The translations under genes were made by a program, and so were the position numbers. 64,000 nucleotides of DNA from Rhodocyclaceae bacterium (GTDB lineage Bacteria > Pseudomonadota > Gammaproteobacteria > Burkholderiales > Rhodocyclaceae): NCBI GenBank assembly GCA_031556405.1, contig JAVBTC010000032.1, positions 2,433 to 66,432 of the forward strand, in the 5' to 3' direction. The notes beneath the pieces are model-generated. The model saw only the letters and a list, made by a program, of their open reading frames with translations. It did not search any database and was not told the DNA's origin. Below are positions 6,671 to 59,717 of the stretch, piece by piece (within the stretch, counting starts at the first letter, position 1; each line of letters begins with the position of its first letter).

Positions 6671-6755
6671 ATATCTGTATTCCATTATTGAATGAAATTC
6701 AATTTGGTATGTGTAGCCATATATATGCTCAAATTATTTCATTTATGTTTTTGTG
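6671..6755. repeat. AT-rich intergenic element, copy A (degenerate member)
   Basis: AAATTCAATT (6695-6704) is identical to 11852-11861 in copy B. Palindrome TTGAAT-GAA-ATTCAA at 6688-6702. A CATATATAT core resembles the one in copy E. Confidence 0.35.
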
Positions 6756-11782: not shown

Positions 11783-11800
11783 AAAAAGAGAGGGTTGTTT

Positions 11801-11871
11801 TTCTAAATTTAAATTTAATTATTAAATATATGTGATTACATGTATGTAAGTAAATTCAATTAAATTTATAA
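11801..11871. repeat. AT-rich MITE-like intergenic element, copy B (71 bp)
   Basis: Ends TTCTAAATTT (11801-11810) and AAATTTATAA (11862-11871) are a 9/10 inverted repeat. The interior GTAAATTCAATTAAATTTATAATAAA is shared with copies C, D and E. GC is under 20 percent in a roughly 63 percent GC context. Confidence 0.6.
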
Positions 11872-11985
11872 TAAATGCATTGGTGATCGCAAAAACCGGC
11901 GAATACAAAAACAGAAATCGCCGCCATCGAATGCCTGGGCGCGATGGCTATGTAAGGATGAGGCCGCGTTGTACGGACGAAAAGA

Positions 11986-12011
11986 AACGCCGGAGAATTC
12001 CGGCGTTTTTT
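11986..12011. terminator. Bidirectional intrinsic terminator between the convergent glycosylase and sucB genes
   Basis: 9-bp stem AACGCCGGA/TCCGGCGTT with a GAAT loop. T6 follows on the plus strand, and an A/T-rich run precedes it (T-rich on the minus strand). Confidence 0.7.
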
Positions 12012-12149
12012 CTGTGGTCATTTTTATAGCGTCATCAACAAGCGTGCTGGAAACGATCACGGCGAATCTGGCACGTTCGCCGGATTCGCCGTTCATCGTA
12101 CGAAACACCGGAAATCCGGTTTCCGTGACGGCAAGTCAGCCGCGTCGAT

Positions 12150-13451
12150 TTAAACGCCGAGCAGCAGCCGCGCCGGATCTTCCAGGGCCTCTTTCATCGC
12201 CACCAAACTCAGCACCGCCTCGCGGCCATCGATGATGCGGTGGTCGTAGGAGAGCGCCAGGTAGTTGATCGGGCGCACGACGACCTGGCCGTTCTCGACG
12301 ACGGCGCGGTCCTTGGTCGCGTGGATGCCGAGAATCGCGGATTGCGGCGGGTTGATGATCGGGGTCGACAGCATGGAGCCGAAGACGCCGCCGTTGCTGA
12401 TCGAGAAGGTGCCGCCGGTGAGTTCCTCGATCGAGAGCTTGCCGTCTTTGGCCTTGGTGCCGAATTCGGCGATCTTGCGCTCGATGTCGGCGATCGAAAG
12501 CTGGTCGGCGTCGCGGATGATCGGAACGACCAGCCCGCGCGGACTGCCGACGGCAATGCCGATGTCGACGTAGCCGTGGTAGACGATGTCGTTGCCGTCG
12601 ATCGAGGCGTTGACCACGGGGTATTTCTTCAGCGCCGCGCAGGCGGCCTTGACGAAGAAGCCCATGAAGCCCAGGCGCACGCCGTATTCTTTTTCGAAAC
12701 GGTCGCCGTACTGTTTTCTCAGGGCCATTACCGGAGCCATGTTGACTTCGTTGAAGGTGGTGAGAATGGCGTTTTCGTTTTTCGACTGGATCAGGCGCTC
12801 GGCGATGCGGGCGCGCAGGCGCGACATCGGCACGCGCTGTTCGGGACGGTTGGCGAGCACGGCCTCGACGTTGACCGCAGGCGGCGTCGGCAGCGCGGGA
12901 CGGGCCGCAGCGCCGGTGCCGGCGGAAATGGAAACCGGCGGCGTTGCCTTGAGCTGCGCGTTCTTCGCGTCTTCCTTGGTGACGCGTCCGCCGCGGCCGG
13001 TACCGACGACGTCGGTGGGCGCAATGCCTTTCTCGGCAAGAATCTTTCGTGCCGCCGGCATCGCGACGCCCGGTGCCGCCGGGGCGGCGGGAGCGGAAGG
13101 CGCGGGGACGGCGGCAGGCATGGGCACCGAGGGCTCGGCGACGATGACCGGCGCCGGCGCGGCGGTGGGTGCGGATTTTGGTGCACCGGCCGGGGCGGCA
13201 GCGCTGGCCTTGGCCTCGGTGTCGATGCGCGCGATGACTTCGCCGGAAACGACGGTGTCGCCGTCGCCCTTGACGATTTCCATCAGGACGCCGCTGTCGG
13301 GCGCGGGCAGTTCGAGCACGACCTTGTCGGTCTCGATGTCGATCAGGTTTTCATCGCGGGTGACGGGGTCGCCCGCTTTTTTGTTCCAGGTGAGCAGCGT
13401 CGCCTCGGCGACGGACTCGGACAGTTGCGGAACTTTGACGTCGATGATCAT
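12150..13451 (-). CDS. sucB: 2-oxoglutarate dehydrogenase E2, dihydrolipoyllysine-residue succinyltransferase
   Basis: Lipoyl domain (..[13 protein letters not shown]..), Ala/Pro linker, and a catalytic domain ending ..[13 protein letters not shown].. Confidence 0.95.
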
Positions 13452-22371: not shown

Positions 22372-22489
22372 GGGTGGAAAAGGGAAAGAAGGTAAAAAGA
22401 GGAATGGGTCACGGGGTGGGATTTCATCATAAAAAAAATCGGACGTCTATCCTTAGATTTATATCTTATATAAAACAATTGTTGAAGCA

Positions 22490-22518
22490 TTGACAGTGCC
22501 TTTTCCCCCTTCTATGAT
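22490..22518 (+). promoter_or_regulatory. Near-consensus sigma70 promoter upstream of mdh (TTGACA-17 nt-TATGAT)
   Basis: TTGACA at 22490-22495, a 17-nt spacer, and TATGAT at 22513-22518. This implies a leader of about 215 nt before the mdh ATG at 22740. Confidence 0.5.
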
Positions 22519-25433: not shown

Positions 25434-25621
25434 GTACGTTCCTTTTCGAAGAGTGCCGTATTTTCCCTCTTGGTTCCCAATAGGGAGAAATTTCTTCGGA
25501 TTTTCTTTTTTTATTCTATTTTCAGTTAAGTTTGTTTTCTTTCATGTATTAACATACAGGAAAGAATTGTTTTTTATTTGAACGGCATTAAATTATTTTG
25601 TTGTGACGCTCCAAAATACCA

Positions 25622-31663: not shown

Positions 31664-31690
31664 GGGCGTCGGTGATACGGCGCCTTTTTT
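31664..31690 (+). terminator. Rho-independent terminator of phaC
   Basis: 7-bp stem (31665-31671 / 31678-31684) with a 6-nt loop, followed by T6. Confidence 0.7.
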
Positions 31691-31695
31691 CCAAC

Positions 31696-31765
31696 ATAAA
31701 AATAATTTCTTATTAAATCTCTCTACTGTAGAGAGAGTAAATTTAATTATTATTTATAATAAAAG
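31696..31765. repeat. AT-rich intergenic element, copy C (degenerate member; contains a 17-nt palindrome)
   Basis: Right half GTAAATTTAATTATTATTTATAATAAAAG matches copies B and D. The central palindrome CTCTCTAC-T-GTAGAGAG is at 31719-31735. Confidence 0.45.
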
Positions 31766-34889: not shown

Positions 34890-35260
34890 GAAGCTGGCCA
34901 GGCAACCGCCGGGTGCGCCGTTTTGCGGCGCGCCGGGAGGAAAGTCCGGGCTCCGCAGAGCGGGATGCCGGTTAATGGCCGGACGCCGCGAGGCGATGGA
35001 AAGTGGCACAGAGAACAGACCGCCGATGGCCCCCGTGATTTTCACGGCGGGATCAGGCAAGGGTGAAACGGCGAGGTAAAAGCTCACCGCGGACGTGGTA
35101 ACACGGACGGCACGCTAAACCCCATCCGGAGCAAGGCCAAATAGGGAAGCATCGGCGTGACTCGCGCCGCTTCCGGGTAGGCTGCTTGAGCGGCGCGGCA
35201 ACGCGTCGCCTAGAGGAATGGTTGCCCACGACAGAACCCGGCTTATCGGCCAGCTTCACT
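34890..35260 (+). ncRNA. rnpB: RNase P RNA, bacterial type A
   Basis: 5' GAAGCUGGCCAGGCAACCGC pairs with 3' ..GGCUUAUCGGCCAGCUUC (P1). The universally conserved GGGAGGAAAGUCCGGGCUCC, ..ACAGAAC.. and AGGGUGAAA.GGUG.GGUAA blocks are present. Confidence 0.9.
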
Positions 35261-35271
35261 TCTTTTTCTGA

Positions 35272-35405: not shown

Positions 35406-35437
35406 AAAAAAAAGCGCGACCCTGAAAGAGTCGCGCT
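35406..35437 (-). terminator. Orphan rho-independent terminator (minus strand)
   Basis: 8-bp stem AGCGCGAC/GTCGCGCT with a 9-nt loop, followed by U8 on the minus strand (A8 at 35406-35413). The nearest upstream minus-strand gene (coq7) ends 410 nt away. Confidence 0.75.
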
Positions 35438-35575
35438 GAATCCACACCAAAGGAGGAGGGTGGAGGAGACAACCGTAAGAATTTCCAAAGCCGCAAAAAT
35501 TATCGGAACCGACAGCGCCGCTTTGAAACCTAAAAAACTATCGCGGCACAGCCTTGGAAATCTGAACAGTCCTCA
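35406..35575 (-). ncRNA. Candidate small RNA (5' end undefined)
   Basis: On the minus strand: an 11-bp long-range helix (35551-35561 with 35481-35491), then the single-stranded CU-rich tract CUCCUCCACCCUCCUCCUUUGG (complement of 35447-35470), then the terminator above. No promoter was confidently located. Confidence 0.35.
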
Positions 35576-35582
35576 TTATGGA

Positions 35583-35665
35583 CATATCTAATTCGGAAAG
35601 CAAGATTTTTTTGTGCGCCGCACCAGATATTTATTTAATAGGTTCATAAATAAATTTTATCCAAG
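35583..35665. repeat. AT-rich intergenic element, copy G (degenerate member)
   Basis: The 15-mer GATATTTATTTAATA (35626-35640) is identical to 58529-58543 in copy F. CATAAATAAATTTTAT resembles CATAAATTTAAT in copy E. Confidence 0.4.
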
Positions 35666-41452: not shown

Positions 41453-41526
41453 ATTTGTTATTAAATAATTTCAGCTTAAAATTTACTATAGTAGCTGATG
41501 TAAATAATATTTTATAATAGAAAAAC
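41453..41526. repeat. AT-rich intergenic element, copy D (degenerate member)
   Basis: GTAGCTGAT (41491-41499) is shared with copy F (58523-58531). The right end GTAAATAATATTTTATAATAGAAAAA parallels copies B and C. Confidence 0.45.
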
Positions 41527-43153: not shown

Positions 43154-45274
43154 GTGGCGTCCGCGCATTCTTCCGGCACCGTCGTCCGCGTCGCGCTCGG
43201 CGTGCCGCTTCATCGTTTGTTCGACTATCTCGCGCCGCAGGCAAGTCCCGGGGATATCGGGCGCCGGGTGTGCGTGCCGTTCGGCGACAGAACGCGCATC
43301 GGCGTTATCGTCGCCGTTGGAGTGGAAAGCGAAATCCCGCCGGAACAGCTCAAGCCGGTGTGCGAACTCCTTGCCGATCTGCCGCCCTTGCCGCCGGAAT
43401 GGCTGCGGTTGTGCGAATTCTGTTCCGGGTATTACCACGCGCCGCTCGGGGAAGTCATGCTTGCCGCGCTGCCGGCGGGGCTGAAACGTGCAGCGCCCGT
43501 GAAGACGCGGCGGGTAAAAACCAAGGCCGTTGCCTGTTCCGTGGCGGAGTCGCTGCCGGAACTCACGGTGGAACAGGCGGCGGCGCTCGCGTCCATCCGG
43601 TCCGCGGGGCGGGGCTTTCATCCGTTTCTGTTGTTCGGCGTGACCGGCAGCGGTAAAACCGAGATCTATCTGCGTCTGATCGAGGATACGCTGGCGGCGG
43701 GCGGGCAGGTGCTGCTCCTGACGCCGGAGATCAATCTCACGCCGCAGCTCGAGGCGCGCATCGCGGCGCGCTTCCCGGCGACGCCGCCGGTCAGCCTGCA
43801 CAGCGAGCTCTCCGAGGCCATGCGCACGCGCCATTGGCGTGCCGCGTTCGCGGGCGAAGCGCGCATCGTGCTCGGTACGCGGCTCGCCATTTTCACGCCG
43901 ATGCCGGACCTGGCGTTGATCATCATCGACGAGGAACATGATCCTTCCCTCAAGCAGCAGGACGGAATCCGCTATTCGGCGCGCGATCTCGCCGTGTTCC
44001 GTGCGCGGCAGCGCGGAATTCCGATCGTCCTGGGATCGGCGACCCCGTCGCTGGAAAGCTGGGCCAACGCGCATGGGCGCCGCGCGCCGGCCAGGATATC
44101 GGGAAACACGCCGAAAAAAATACCGGGAAAAATGCCAGGAACTGCGCCGACAAACCTACCGGATACCGCGGCAGCCGATGTCGCTGGCCGTTACCGGCTG
44201 CTTACGCTGACCGGACGCGCTGCCAGCAACGCCCGTCTGCCTGCCGTGCGTTGCCTCGATACCCGGCGGGAAACGATGCACGAAGGTTTGTCCGCTTCCC
44301 TGATCGACGCCCTGGCCGAGCGCCTTGAGCGCGGCGAACAAAGCCTGGTTTTTCTCAACCGGCGCGGATTCGCCCCCGTGCTCGCCTGTCCCGCGTGCGG
44401 CTGGATTTCGCACTGCAAGCGTTGTGCCGCCAATCTCGTCCTGCATCTGGCGGACCGCCGCTTGCGTTGCCATCACTGCGGTTTCGAGGCGGGGGTGCCG
44501 CGGGCCTGTCCCTCCTGTGGCAATCTCGACCTGCATCCGTTCGGGCGCGGCACGCAGCGCCTGGAGGCTTTTCTCGCCGAGCGTTTTCCGCAGGCGCGCA
44601 TCCTGCGCGTCGACCGCGACGCGGCCAAAAGCCGCAGGCAATGGGAAGCCATGCTGGACAGAATTCACGGCGGCGATGCCGATATTCTCGTCGGCACCCA
44701 GATGCTGGCCAAGGGGCATGATTTTCCCCGCCTCACGCTGGTCGGTGCCGTTGGTGCCGACGCGGCGCTGTTCGCCGCCGACTGGCGGGCGCCGGAACGA
44801 CTATTCGCGCTCCTGATGCAGGTTGCCGGGCGGGCCGGACGGGCCGATCTGCCGGGAGCGGTGCTGATCCAGACGCAGTATCCGGATCATCCGCTGTATG
44901 CGGCGCTGGTCGCGCACGACTATCCTTCCTTTGCGTTCGCGCAGCTCGCCGAGCGTAAAAATGCCGGGTTTCCTCCTTACAGTCACCAGGCCATATTGCG
45001 CGCCGAGGCGTCGGAGATGGCGCAATCCATCGCTTTTCTCACCAGCGCGCGCGCGGAGGCGCGGATGCGGGAACATCCCGCCGTCGAGTTTTACGATCCG
45101 GTGACGATGCGTCTTTCACGGCGTGCCGACCGGGAGCGGGCGCAGATGCTGATCGAATCGTTTTCGCGTCCGGCGCTGCAGATTTTCCTCAAGGATTGGA
45201 TGCCAGTGCTGGCGCGGATAAAAATTCCCGGCCGGCTGCGCTGGCATTTGGAAGTCGATCCAATCGAATTCTAA
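43154..45274 (+). CDS. priA: Primosomal protein N' (replication restart helicase PriA)
   Basis: Walker A GVTGSGKTE, DEEHD box, Cys-rich zinc region CPACG..CKRC..CHHCG..CPSCG, and the C-terminal domain. Confidence 0.93.
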   Translation: MASAHSSGTVVRVALGVPLHRLFDYLAPQASPGDIGRRVCVPFGDRTRIGVIVAVGVESEIPPEQLKPVCELLADLPPLPPEWLRLCEFCSGYYHAPLGEVMLAALPAGLKRAAPVKTRRVKTKAVACSVAESLPELTVEQAAALASIRSAGRGFHPFLLFGVTGSGKTEIYLRLIEDTLAAGGQVLLLTPEINLTPQLEARIAARFPATPPVSLHSELSEAMRTRHWRAAFAGEARIVLGTRLAIFTPMPDLALIIIDEEHDPSLKQQDGIRYSARDLAVFRARQRGIPIVLGSATPSLESWANAHGRRAPARISGNTPKKIPGKMPGTAPTNLPDTAAADVAGRYRLLTLTGRAASNARLPAVRCLDTRRETMHEGLSASLIDALAERLERGEQSLVFLNRRGFAPVLACPACGWISHCKRCAANLVLHLADRRLRCHHCGFEAGVPRACPSCGNLDLHPFGRGTQRLEAFLAERFPQARILRVDRDAAKSRRQWEAMLDRIHGGDADILVGTQMLAKGHDFPRLTLVGAVGADAALFAADWRAPERLFALLMQVAGRAGRADLPGAVLIQTQYPDHPLYAALVAHDYPSFAFAQLAERKNAGFPPYSHQAILRAEASEMAQSIAFLTSARAEARMREHPAVEFYDPVTMRLSRRADRERAQMLIESFSRPALQIFLKDWMPVLARIKIPGRLRWHLEVDPIEF

Positions 45275-45344
45275 TTATAAAAAAATAATTTTTACTTGTA
45301 TATGCCTACATATATATACATAAATTTAATCAATATTTAGAATT
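45267..45344. repeat. AT-rich MITE-like intergenic element, copy E (78 bp)
   Basis: Perfect 8-bp terminal inverted repeats AATTCTAA (45267-45274) and TTAGAATT (45337-45344). The left repeat contains the priA stop codon TAA (45272-45274). Confidence 0.6.
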
Positions 45345-58013: not shown

Positions 58014-58406
58014 ATGATGAATGGTCTAGCGGAGCCACCTCTGTACTTTCGGATCGCGCAAGTTGCCGTATCGCTGCAATTGATTGCCTTCACCGTGTTT
58101 TCGTTTCGTGGTGGCGCGGGTGGGATATTTCTTATAGTCAACTTTTTTGCATTGCTCGGATTGTGGCTTCGTGTGGCATGGGGACGCTTTTTGTGTTCTT
58201 GTGCCATTATTTTTTACGCCGTTGTCGTTGTTGCCCATTTGTTACCCGATATTGATGACCAGGGGACAAGTTTGCTGGAAGGGTGGTTCGGGACGATACC
58301 GCCCCTTTGGTTGTCTCTGCCCATTATATTGAGGAGCGTAGTGGTCATGCTGATCCCTCTGGTGTTGCTGGGCTGGTATCGAGATGGTTTTGAAAAACGC
58401 TGGTAG
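58014..58406 (+). CDS. Hypothetical small membrane protein in a low-GC block
   Basis: 130-aa ORF with about four hydrophobic segments and low GC. No family recognised. Confidence 0.4.
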   Translation: MMNGLAEPPLYFRIAQVAVSLQLIAFTVFSFRGGAGGIFLIVNFFALLGLWLRVAWGRFLCSCAIIFYAVVVVAHLLPDIDDQGTSLLEGWFGTIPPLWLSLPIILRSVVVMLIPLVLLGWYRDGFEKRW

Positions 58407-58481: not shown

Positions 58482-58553
58482 TTCTAAATTAAAATATTAA
58501 TTATAAGTTTTATGCGAATACGGTAGCTGATATTTATTTAATAAAATTTAGAA
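58482..58553. repeat. AT-rich MITE-like intergenic element, copy F (72 bp, best-defined)
   Basis: Perfect 9-bp terminal inverted repeats TTCTAAATT (58482-58490) and AATTTAGAA (58545-58553). The interior shares GTAGCTGAT with copy D and a 15-mer with copy G. Confidence 0.65.
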
Positions 58554-58632
58554 AAATAAGCCGGTTCACATTGATGCGCGAATGCGCTGTGCGTTTACTT
58601 ACTGATTTCCGGCGTTTCGAAATTGCGCCGCC

Positions 58633-59493: not shown

Positions 59494-59717
59494 GCTTTCG
59501 ACCTCCTTCGTTATATGTAGCGGTTATGCTACCGTTTCTCTCGCGGCGCGTCGACAGAGGGCGCTACCATGGATGAGCGGCGCCTGCCGCCGGTATTAGG
59601 ATGTATTCCAGGTTCAAAAAATAATTACAAGATAAAACCCGCTACGTTGATATAGATAAAGTTAATCCATATCTGGAAAATTCATGCTATATTCATGCCA
59701 TATCCGGCCCGGCGCAA

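Follow-up and report, generated by a model that had tools for sequence, protein, structure and literature searches.

Short AT-Rich Inverted-Repeat Elements of a Rhodocyclaceae Genome: Probable Decaying Members of a MITE-Like Family Found in Termite-Gut Relatives

Introduction

Among the short repeats that are dispersed through bacterial genomes, the Correia elements are present in hundreds of copies, can create promoters and bind the integration host factor (IHF); their 26-bp terminal repeats begin TATAG(T/C)GGATTA and the dinucleotide TA is duplicated. The repetitive extragenic palindromic sequences (REPs) are usually GC-rich hairpins headed by GTAG and are possible binding sites for IHF or gyrase. 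Here we analyze extremely AT-rich intergenic patches in a 64,000-nucleotide stretch of the genome of a Rhodocyclaceae bacterium (assembly GCA_031556405.1, contig JAVBTC010000032.1, positions 2,433 to 66,432; hereinafter the window), seven of which a sequence-only reading had described as a dispersed family resembling miniature inverted-repeat transposable elements (MITEs). We conclude, with a probability of about 0.72, that five of these patches are diverged copies of a ~78-bp non-coding, inverted-repeat, MITE-like family that is decaying in this genome.

The window has a GC content of 59.3% and a set of core chromosomal genes (sucB, phaC, phasin, pyruvate carboxylase, hemE, priA, ffh, aspS, rep). 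Its assignment to Rhodocyclaceae is borne out by the homologues of PriA, Pyc and PhaC (~68-82%: Azospira, Propionivibrio, Accumulibacter, Azovibrio, Ferribacterium). The near relatives are uncultured only and comprise two loci: L082, on the 190-kb JGI contig Ga0123357_10000010 (PriA 82% identical to that of the window), which was picked through PriA alone, and L204, on the ENA contig ERZ27257292 k141_134818 (PhaC 88%). JGI sample 3300009784 derives from the higher termite Embiratermes neotenicus and is a metagenome of gut segment P4 (PMC7800795). No gene in the collection searched encodes a product identical to the PriA of the window, and the HDOD gene matched only a 3-kb Logan contig identical to the window.

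Results

An Intact Family in Termite-Gut Relatives

Within 22 kb, L082 contains five AT-rich patches that are all plainly alike. A pattern scan of metagenomes with TTTTCTAAATT-N40-70-AATTTAGAAAA, in which perfect 11-mers were required, listed at least 120 stretches, about half of which lie on 55-65% GC contigs of the data sets Ga0123356/Ga0123357 and span a uniform 76-77 nt. The relative loci analyzed below amount to ~0.5 Mb of 55-65% GC contigs from these termite-gut data sets. When 53 copies were oriented and aligned, the consensus was ATTTTCTAAATTTACTTAAATAATGTTTCGCTACTGTAGTGATTTTTAA..AGAATTATTACAGTAATTTAGAAAAT, so that the element in the relatives is 77-78 bp long and ~18% GC, with terminal inverted repeats ATTTTCTAAATT and the core CGCTACnGTAGTG. 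The terminal repeats (ATTTTCTAAATT / AATTTAGAAAAT) extend to ~15 bp with one bulge; they are in part imposed by the search pattern but also occur in the five unbiased copies of L082 and in the three of L204.

Across the retrieved loci, an nhmmer profile built on the aligned copies detects at least 67 distinct copies, 64 of which are essentially full-length. As in MITEs, the element is small (76-78 bp in these 64 copies) and non-coding; it is AT-rich, and a gene-sized open reading frame (ORF) would not fit. Conservation reaches at least 90% at the terminal repeats, in one arm and in the core, and ~12 nt 3' of the core are variable. The copies fall into two or three subfamilies in which the left-arm and right-arm variants are linked (25 of one type vs 38 of the other), and the inner columns show a mean pairwise identity of 0.71 and a mean identity to the consensus of 0.80. 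The linked arms together with the inner identity indicate copying from master elements.

The ends are sharp: in 61-63 of 63 copies the dinucleotide AT directly precedes TTTCTAAA at one end and directly follows TTTAGAAA at the other, with unrelated sequence outside. The many dispersed copies thus have unrelated flanks, the similarity and complementarity of which stay within permuted controls; insertion into palindromes, with the flanks themselves forming inverted repeats, appeared convincing by eye and was rejected on the same grounds (own-flank score 6.16, permuted-flank score 6.16). By gene calls based on GC at third codon positions (GC3), none of the 67 copies lies inside a gene. The 49 copies with classifiable context are distributed among tandem (11 + 14), convergent (14) and divergent (10) spacers, and their orientation is independent of gene direction. 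The idea that orientation is tied to the upstream gene, prompted by the single orientation of all five window copies, was dropped, as it is not borne out by these 49 copies. A rough extrapolation from the five copies per 22 kb of L082 suggests that hundreds of copies are probably present in the clade. The family is discrete, multi-copy, intergenic and sharply bounded, with subfamilies, and it is present in a small clade of ~59-61% GC termite-gut Rhodocyclaceae whose lineages differ in spacer occupancy.

Diverged Copies in the Window

Membership of the window patches was assessed with an nhmmer profile made from the relatives' copies only, with the composition null model off unless stated. Five patches (B, C, E, F and G in Table 1) score 16.7-47.4 bits, and each beats 300 of 300 dinucleotide shuffles, the maxima of which are 12-16 bits; control DNA amounting to 1.6 Mb scores 7.8 bits at most. 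The control consists of proteobacterial loci from a pyruvate carboxylase scan, the nearest of which, among the matches listed, is only 72% identical; as a route to the sister lineage these homologues were dropped because the protein is too conserved to discriminate. In hmmalign alignments the homology of the window patches is visible column by column.

Comparison of the patches among themselves points in the same direction. The summed best local alignment scores exceed those of dinucleotide shuffles with z = 6.5, and several pairs beat all 200 shuffles; the pairs that stand out, designated by patch starts, are 11801/31696, 11801/45267, 11801/58482, 31696/45267, 35583/58482 and 6671/45267. Patches 11801, 31696 and 45267 are colinear across 58-64 columns. 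Taken together, the summed z, the top pairs and the colinearity show that the relatedness is real for a subset of the patches and goes beyond composition. Thus, the contention that the patches are related and not merely AT-rich holds for the five supported by the relatives' profile and by shuffles and is unconfirmed for 35583-35665 and 6671-6755. The seven locations given by the sequence-only reading are correct and all are AT-rich; its background of 63% GC is too high (the mean of the window is 59%), and its range of about 10-20% GC fits five patches (10-17%) and fails for 6671-6755 (25%) and 35583-35665 (30%). All strings that it quoted were found, including the terminal inverted repeats, GTAGCTGAT, the 15-mer GATATTTATTTAATA and AAATTCAATT, although the copy letters attached to them do not match its own list of coordinates.

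The five copies have decayed to different extents. Copy G is the best preserved, with both terminal repeats (TTCTAAATT / AATTTAGAA) and the core GCTACCGTA. Copy B retains one terminal repeat intact (TTTTCTAAATTT), with the other eroded to AAATTTATAA and the core replaced by a different AT-rich palindrome, whereas in copy C the terminal repeats are eroded and the core is a perfect 9-bp palindrome (TCTCTCTAC-A-GTAGAGAGA; RNA fold z = -3.7). Copy E retains one arm and the core (CAGCTACTATAGTA) and has lost the far terminal repeat; copy F has the terminal repeats AATTCTAA / TTAGAATT (RNA fold z = -5.1). Inner-column identity of the window copies to the consensus is ~54-73%. They have in common derived features such as ...TAATTAAATTTAC ahead of the core and, at one end, TTTATAAT in place of TTTAGAAAAT, and therefore form a diverged subfamily of their own.

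The stop codon of priA (TAA, 45272-45274) sits within the terminal repeat of copy F (GAA TTC TAA; window 45267-45274). The relative's priA has its own TGA, and the window appears to have lost ~12 nt, so that priA now ends within the element. Pairs of sigma-70-like hexamers are found inside copies F, E and B (45274-45343, 41455-41482, 11825-11854), such as TATACA-17-TATAAT (10/12) on the minus strand and TATACA-17-TAGAAT aimed at the downstream aminotransferase gene. Such hexamers are expected in AT-rich DNA; by analogy with Correia elements, they could act as outward promoters. Inspection of the consensus by eye revealed no consistently present IHF, LexA-box or sigma-70 motif.

The remaining candidates are weaker. 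The segment 59608-59647, which was absent from the earlier list, is marginal (p = 0.01 against shuffles, barely above the 7.8-bit control maximum). Patch 6671-6755 resembles copy F on the reverse strand above all shuffles and forms a strong local hairpin (z = -3.1). The sole tie of 35583-35665 to copy G is the 15-mer mentioned above, and it is not a demonstrable member; this patch adjoins the upstream side of the promoter region of a toxic small RNA (sRNA). A further AT-rich stretch, 25500-25599 (100 bp, 20% GC, upstream of the phasin gene), was rejected as a member at 7.4 bits, which is noise level; it has a 12-pair hairpin (TCTTTCATGTA...TACAGGAAAGA) and is without an AT-rich counterpart in L204.

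Table 1. Positions of family members, candidate members, terminators and other features in the window and in metagenomic loci (scores of family members are profile scores, and their strands follow the orientation of the family profile).
Feature	Locus	Position	Strand	Details
Copy A, doubtful heavily degraded copy	Window	6671-6755	+	6.5 bits, profile 26-66, noise level
Copy B	Window	11799-11871	-	22.3 bits, profile 4-77, full-length; other strand 13.0 bits
sucB terminator, GC-rich	Window	11985-12008	-	10-pair stem, 6 GC pairs; in the spacer of copy B
phaC intrinsic terminator	Window	31665-31690	+	GGCGTC...GGCGCC then TTTTTT; read directly
Copy C	Window	31689-31756	-	22.0 bits, profile 7-75, full-length
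RNase P RNA, class A	Window	34890-35261	+	Rfam 311.8 bits
Betaproteobacteria toxic sRNA	Window	35406-35471	-	Rfam 67.5 bits; own strong terminator 35413-35437, minus strand
AT-rich patch, not a demonstrable member	Window	35583-35665		No profile match; own small palindrome; between the toxic-sRNA gene and COQ7
Copy E	Window	41459-41524	-	21.4 bits, profile 2-66
Copy F	Window	45269-45342	-	16.7 bits, profile 4-75, full-length
Copy G	Window	58482-58555	-	47.4 bits, full-length; with the default null E = 5.6e-6, profile 2-75, ungapped
Possible partial relic, core-distal half	Window	59608-59647	-	9.3 bits, profile 34-73; upstream of HDOD gene
125-bp GC-rich repeat	L184	3322-3446
125-bp GC-rich repeat	L190	565-689
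125-bp GC-rich repeat	L113	614-738
125-bp GC-rich repeat	L162	14101-14226
125-bp GC-rich repeat	L109	8063-8187
125-bp GC-rich repeat	L148	1680-1804		And other loci
Palindromic repeat of 37-46% GC contigs	L085	7513-7586
Palindromic repeat of 37-46% GC contigs	L089	465-531
Palindromic repeat of 37-46% GC contigs	L094, L107, L122, L141, L146, L155, L161, L165
Identical 80-nt sequence	L088	117-196
Identical 80-nt sequence	L095, L114, L115, L119, L120, L123, L125, L153			And other loci

Orthologous Spacers and Insertion Sites

The single clear case of presence and absence at an orthologous site is the mdh-phasin spacer, in which L204 has a 77-bp copy between two terminators; the window keeps both terminators, 32 nt apart, with no element. 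Furthermore, placement differs in the phaC spacer, where the copy of L204 begins at the stop codon, ahead of the terminator, and copy C of the window lies past it; in the sucB spacer the relative's copy (L193 7555-7631) is located ~230-270 nt from the sucB stop, in the orientation opposite to that of copy B. Two spacers contain a copy in each of the two lineages, with matching orientation, namely that of priA (L082 copy 11997-12073, 6 nt past the priA stop) and that between aspS and the HDOD gene (L082 copy 13311-13386). In the outgroup, a Rhodocyclaceae metagenome-assembled genome (MAG) of 71% GC with the same hemE-priA gene order as the window (L203), there is no AT patch and no profile match in 22 kb. 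The absence from the outgroup, the occupancy and placement of the copies, and the existence of a second dispersed repeat in the relative lineage (see below) together agree better with recurrent insertion into permissive spacers than with a signal that is fixed and inherited.

Two other observations concern these spacers. Between aspS and copy G the window has a 130-aa ORF (58014-58406, plus strand) without a Pfam match, for which a gene call exists on Logan contig L001, identical to the window; L082 has no corresponding ORF, and there the aspS terminator abuts the element. The divergent spacer between a GntR-family regulator gene and mdh contains an AT-rich patch (window 22419-22506, L204 2983-3021) that is conserved in sequence (TATCTTATATAAAA...); it is an ordinary conserved promoter/operator region, in contrast to the mobile patches.

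With respect to the choice of insertion sites, the flanks are informative. Runs of A5 or T5 in the 60-nt flanks begin 4-10 nt from the element end in 24 of 31 cases, with the T-tracts pointing at the element, far beyond chance given that these seven positions out of ~56 would be expected to hold 12.5%. Outward of the T-tracts the sequence is C/G-rich, and at least one such arrangement is found in 22 of 62 copies. In the window, copy C lies 5 nt past the T-tract of the phaC terminator, which a simple scan did not list because its stem has one mismatch. We interpret this bias as an insertion preference just beyond terminators, to which selection for harmless sites may contribute. The elements themselves are not intrinsic terminators, since they contain no GC-rich stem-loop with a T-tract and ordinary GC hairpin/T-tract terminators adjoin them.

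A search of the window and of the ~0.5 Mb of relative loci revealed no terminal repeats that are solo or widely spaced, and the possibility that the 11-mers are uptake sequences was rejected, as no 11-mer occurs alone outside the elements. A BLAST search of plasmid and phage collections with the consensus gave only chance partial matches in AT-rich genomes, and searches of the full-text literature for the terminal-repeat strings returned only primers and unrelated sequences.

Other Repeats

A second dispersed repeat in the relative lineage is GC-rich and ~125 bp long (TTGAACACCTGTCGAGCGCAATCCCCGCC...GGTTGGGGTGACTCAA), with copies 90-100% identical; it is unrelated to the AT-rich family, and six of its ~19 copies are no more than 40 nt away from an AT-rich element. 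None was detected in the window. In several copies (L158 3320-3493, L134 5845-6017, L098, L104, L186) a GC-rich palindromic insert of ~52 bp is nested at position ~90. The same TTTTCTAAATT...AATTTAGAAAA 11-mers also occur in a different palindromic repeat on 37-46% GC contigs, apparently from termite gut too, where they form part of a more extended conserved inverted repeat (ACAATATAAACCAACAAAATGCACA | ... | TGTGCATTTTGTTGGTTTATATTGT); the shared 11-mers may reflect common ancestry of the ends, horizontal spread or coincidence. Moreover, an identical 80-nt sequence (TTTTCTAAATTATGTTTTTCTTATGAACAGATTGTGAATG...CGGAAAAATTTAGAAAA), unrelated to the family and captured solely through the search pattern, recurs on ~55-62% GC contigs, which come from human-gut assemblies where the source is named. 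Finally, a long GC-rich hairpin in L082 (6827-6910), ~60 nt from an AT-rich element, has sub-threshold Rfam matches to microRNA precursors (mir-761, 35 bits); it probably represents a further palindromic repeat or else a bidirectional terminator.

Discussion

The evidence presented here favors the interpretation, proposed in the sequence-only reading for seven patches and upheld here for five, that the AT-rich patches are non-autonomous, MITE-like transposon relics. With respect to the mechanism, we hypothesize that a transposase supplied in trans would act on the 12-15-bp terminal inverted repeats, resulting in the spread of copies, and that insertion would favor sites a few bases past the T-tracts of terminators. 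In the window genome, the copies would no longer be renewed and would be drifting, such that the ends and the core erode while the length and the AT-richness persist. Effects on neighboring genes, through outward promoter-like hexamers or DNA bending, would be a by-product, and the window copies are presumably neutral. In the Embiratermes-gut lineage, the family is well preserved and possibly still active.

Several observations weigh against this interpretation. The flanks hold no direct repeat longer than 2 bp, and the invariant AT on both sides of the element could be either a 2-bp target-site duplication or part of the repeat. Neither a transposase nor a longer element with these terminal repeats was detected in the window and the ~0.5 Mb of relative loci, which are partial genomes. 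When the element is removed in silico, the mdh-phasin spacers align too poorly for a base-for-base empty site. The occupancy of the priA and aspS/HDOD spacers in the same orientation, which was observed in an unbiased sample, would also be expected of a conserved functional element. The gene-context counts depend on crude GC3-based gene calls. Moreover, in the relatives the terminal repeats and the core are far better conserved than the interior, which host selection could explain; part of this contrast is due to ascertainment because the scan required perfect 11-mers.

The alternative that best survives, although we consider it improbable, is that the element is a host-selected, domesticated DNA module, in which the AT-rich bendable arms and the central palindrome bind a nucleoid-associated or other DNA-binding protein (IHF, an H-NS-like protein or gyrase), in the manner of REP/BIME and Correia elements. 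By analogy with the IHF- or gyrase-binding bacterial interspersed mosaic elements (BIMEs), such modules, placed ~10 bp past terminators, might serve as chromosomal 'punctuation' of transcription units, an equally improbable extension. The weight that we give to this alternative reflects the requirement for perfect ends in the sampling and the crude gene calls. It is compatible with the fixed short spacing from terminator T-tracts and with the much stronger conservation of the core and one arm relative to the remainder in 64 copies. Likewise, the window copies keep their length (~66-74 nt aligned) and their 10-17% GC despite ~30-45% divergence, the central palindrome persists with changed sequence in copies B, C and F, and the two spacers just mentioned are occupied in both lineages. 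However, AT-rich drift would be the outcome of AT-biased mutation on unconstrained DNA, palindromes arise easily in a two-letter sequence, and the folding of two of the five copies does not surpass that of shuffles. Furthermore, the presence/absence and differing placement at orthologous spacers, the random gene context and orientation, and a subfamily structure typical of replicative spread all argue against a module fixed by selection and for the MITE-like interpretation.

Less probable is a REP/REPIN-type element, for which the mobilizing enzyme would be a REP-associated tyrosine transposase (RAYT; TnpA_REP, Y1 transposase) instead of a DDE transposase working on the terminal inverted repeats. 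The core CGCTAC-n-GTAGTG does hold GTAG, head to head on both strands, and like many REPs the element is a short, abundant intergenic palindromic repeat near terminators. Nevertheless, GTAG occurs only centrally (CTAC-n-GTAG), neither half forms a hairpin of its own, and the conserved inverted repeats occupy the outer ends and are not REP hairpins. A tblastn search with an E. coli RayT sequence as the probe found no RAYT-like ORF in the window and the ~0.5 Mb of relative loci, a small sample relative to a genome (best E = 0.07); the ORFs with weak matches had no Y1_Tnp Pfam match.

It is quite unlikely that the patches act at the RNA level as 3'-end elements, be it as an AU-rich terminator, an mRNA-stabilizing hairpin or a small RNA. 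This possibility draws on the position of six of the seven window patches downstream of plus-strand genes, on the folding of copies C, F and the unconfirmed A significantly better than shuffles, which B and G do not match, and on the core G-T pair of the family, which becomes G-U on one strand only. In the window, however, the strand transcribed from the upstream genes carries an A-C mismatch rather than G-U, and canonical terminators lie alongside. RNAalifold of 64 copies, on either strand, revealed only the invariant terminal stem (-2.0 and -3.5 kcal/mol) with no covariation. No Rfam family corresponds to the element: at the gathering threshold the window contains only the RNase P RNA and the toxic sRNA, and L082 gives nothing at the elements at E <= 1. 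Above all, orientation is random in the 49 classifiable copies, 10 of which are in divergent promoter spacers. Accordingly, the placement downstream of plus-strand 3' ends that had been noted for the window patches does not extend to the family in the relatives, whose contexts are unbiased, and the suggestion of an undescribed class of 3'-end element finds no support, given that copies occupy spacers of all three kinds (tandem, convergent, divergent) in either orientation and that ordinary terminators stand beside the elements.

Finally, the view that there is no family, only unrelated AT-rich spacers with chance shared words, is refuted for five patches and may hold for 35583-35665 and 6671-6755. 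In its favor, single shared 9-15-mers are near chance expectation at 15% GC, and the profile does not recover two of the seven patches. Against it, the patches are colinear among themselves, and a profile made independently from a different organism covers five of them over their whole extent, with scores far higher than those of shuffles and controls.

Thus, the MITE-like family most likely represents a small mobile element of a familiar type that had not been named before, not a new gene-end signal, and no new category of genetic element is involved. The repeat profile explains the puzzling islands of 10-17% GC in a 59% GC genome and is expected to be useful for annotation and for assembly, as MAG contigs break at such repeats; the elements further offer markers for strain and lineage tracking. 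Moreover, a lineage with intact ends and a decaying sister could provide a system for the study of MITE extinction, of terminator-proximal insertion preference and of possible domestication.

Comparison with Known Systems

The family can be set against several described classes of elements. An integron attC site was considered and rejected, as the ends do not fit the R''/R' core sites (RYYYAAC ... GTTRRRY) and the neighbors are housekeeping genes kilobases apart. The bacterial group IIC introns likewise insert a short fixed distance past an intrinsic terminator; the analogy extends to target choice only, given that these introns are kilobase-sized retroelements that encode a reverse transcriptase. 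ERIC/IRU and RUP/BOX elements are similar in being imperfect palindromes of ~100-130 bp, transcribed or intergenic, with a copy number that varies by lineage, but they show no sequence similarity to the present family, occur in other hosts and are not markedly AT-rich relative to the genome. With the REP/BIME/REPIN class the family has in common short intergenic palindromic repeats, often beside terminators, and the GTAG motif in the core; it differs in that GTAG is central and the conserved repeats are terminal, in that the sample yielded no RAYT, and in that the structural definition of the class does not apply.

The resemblance to bacterial MITEs is more extensive and includes the size below 300 bp, the lack of coding capacity, the terminal inverted repeats, many dispersed intergenic copies, sharp ends, subfamilies and variable occupancy. 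The distinguishing traits are the lack of a parent insertion sequence or transposase among the loci searched, a target duplication of at most AT, and ~18% GC in a host of 59-61% GC. Within Betaproteobacteria, the family comes closest to the Correia elements (CREE/NEMIS) of Neisseria, which it resembles in size, in architecture and in genomic habit, namely the ~100-bp class, terminal inverted repeats, intergenic copies near gene ends and an AT-rich interior. In contrast to Correia elements, its ends are ATTTTCTAAATT and its flanking dinucleotide is AT, there is no consistent IHF consensus, and both the host family and the habitat are different. Because the ends are unrelated to those of Correia elements, the elements of the termite-gut Rhodocyclaceae are not members of the Correia family.

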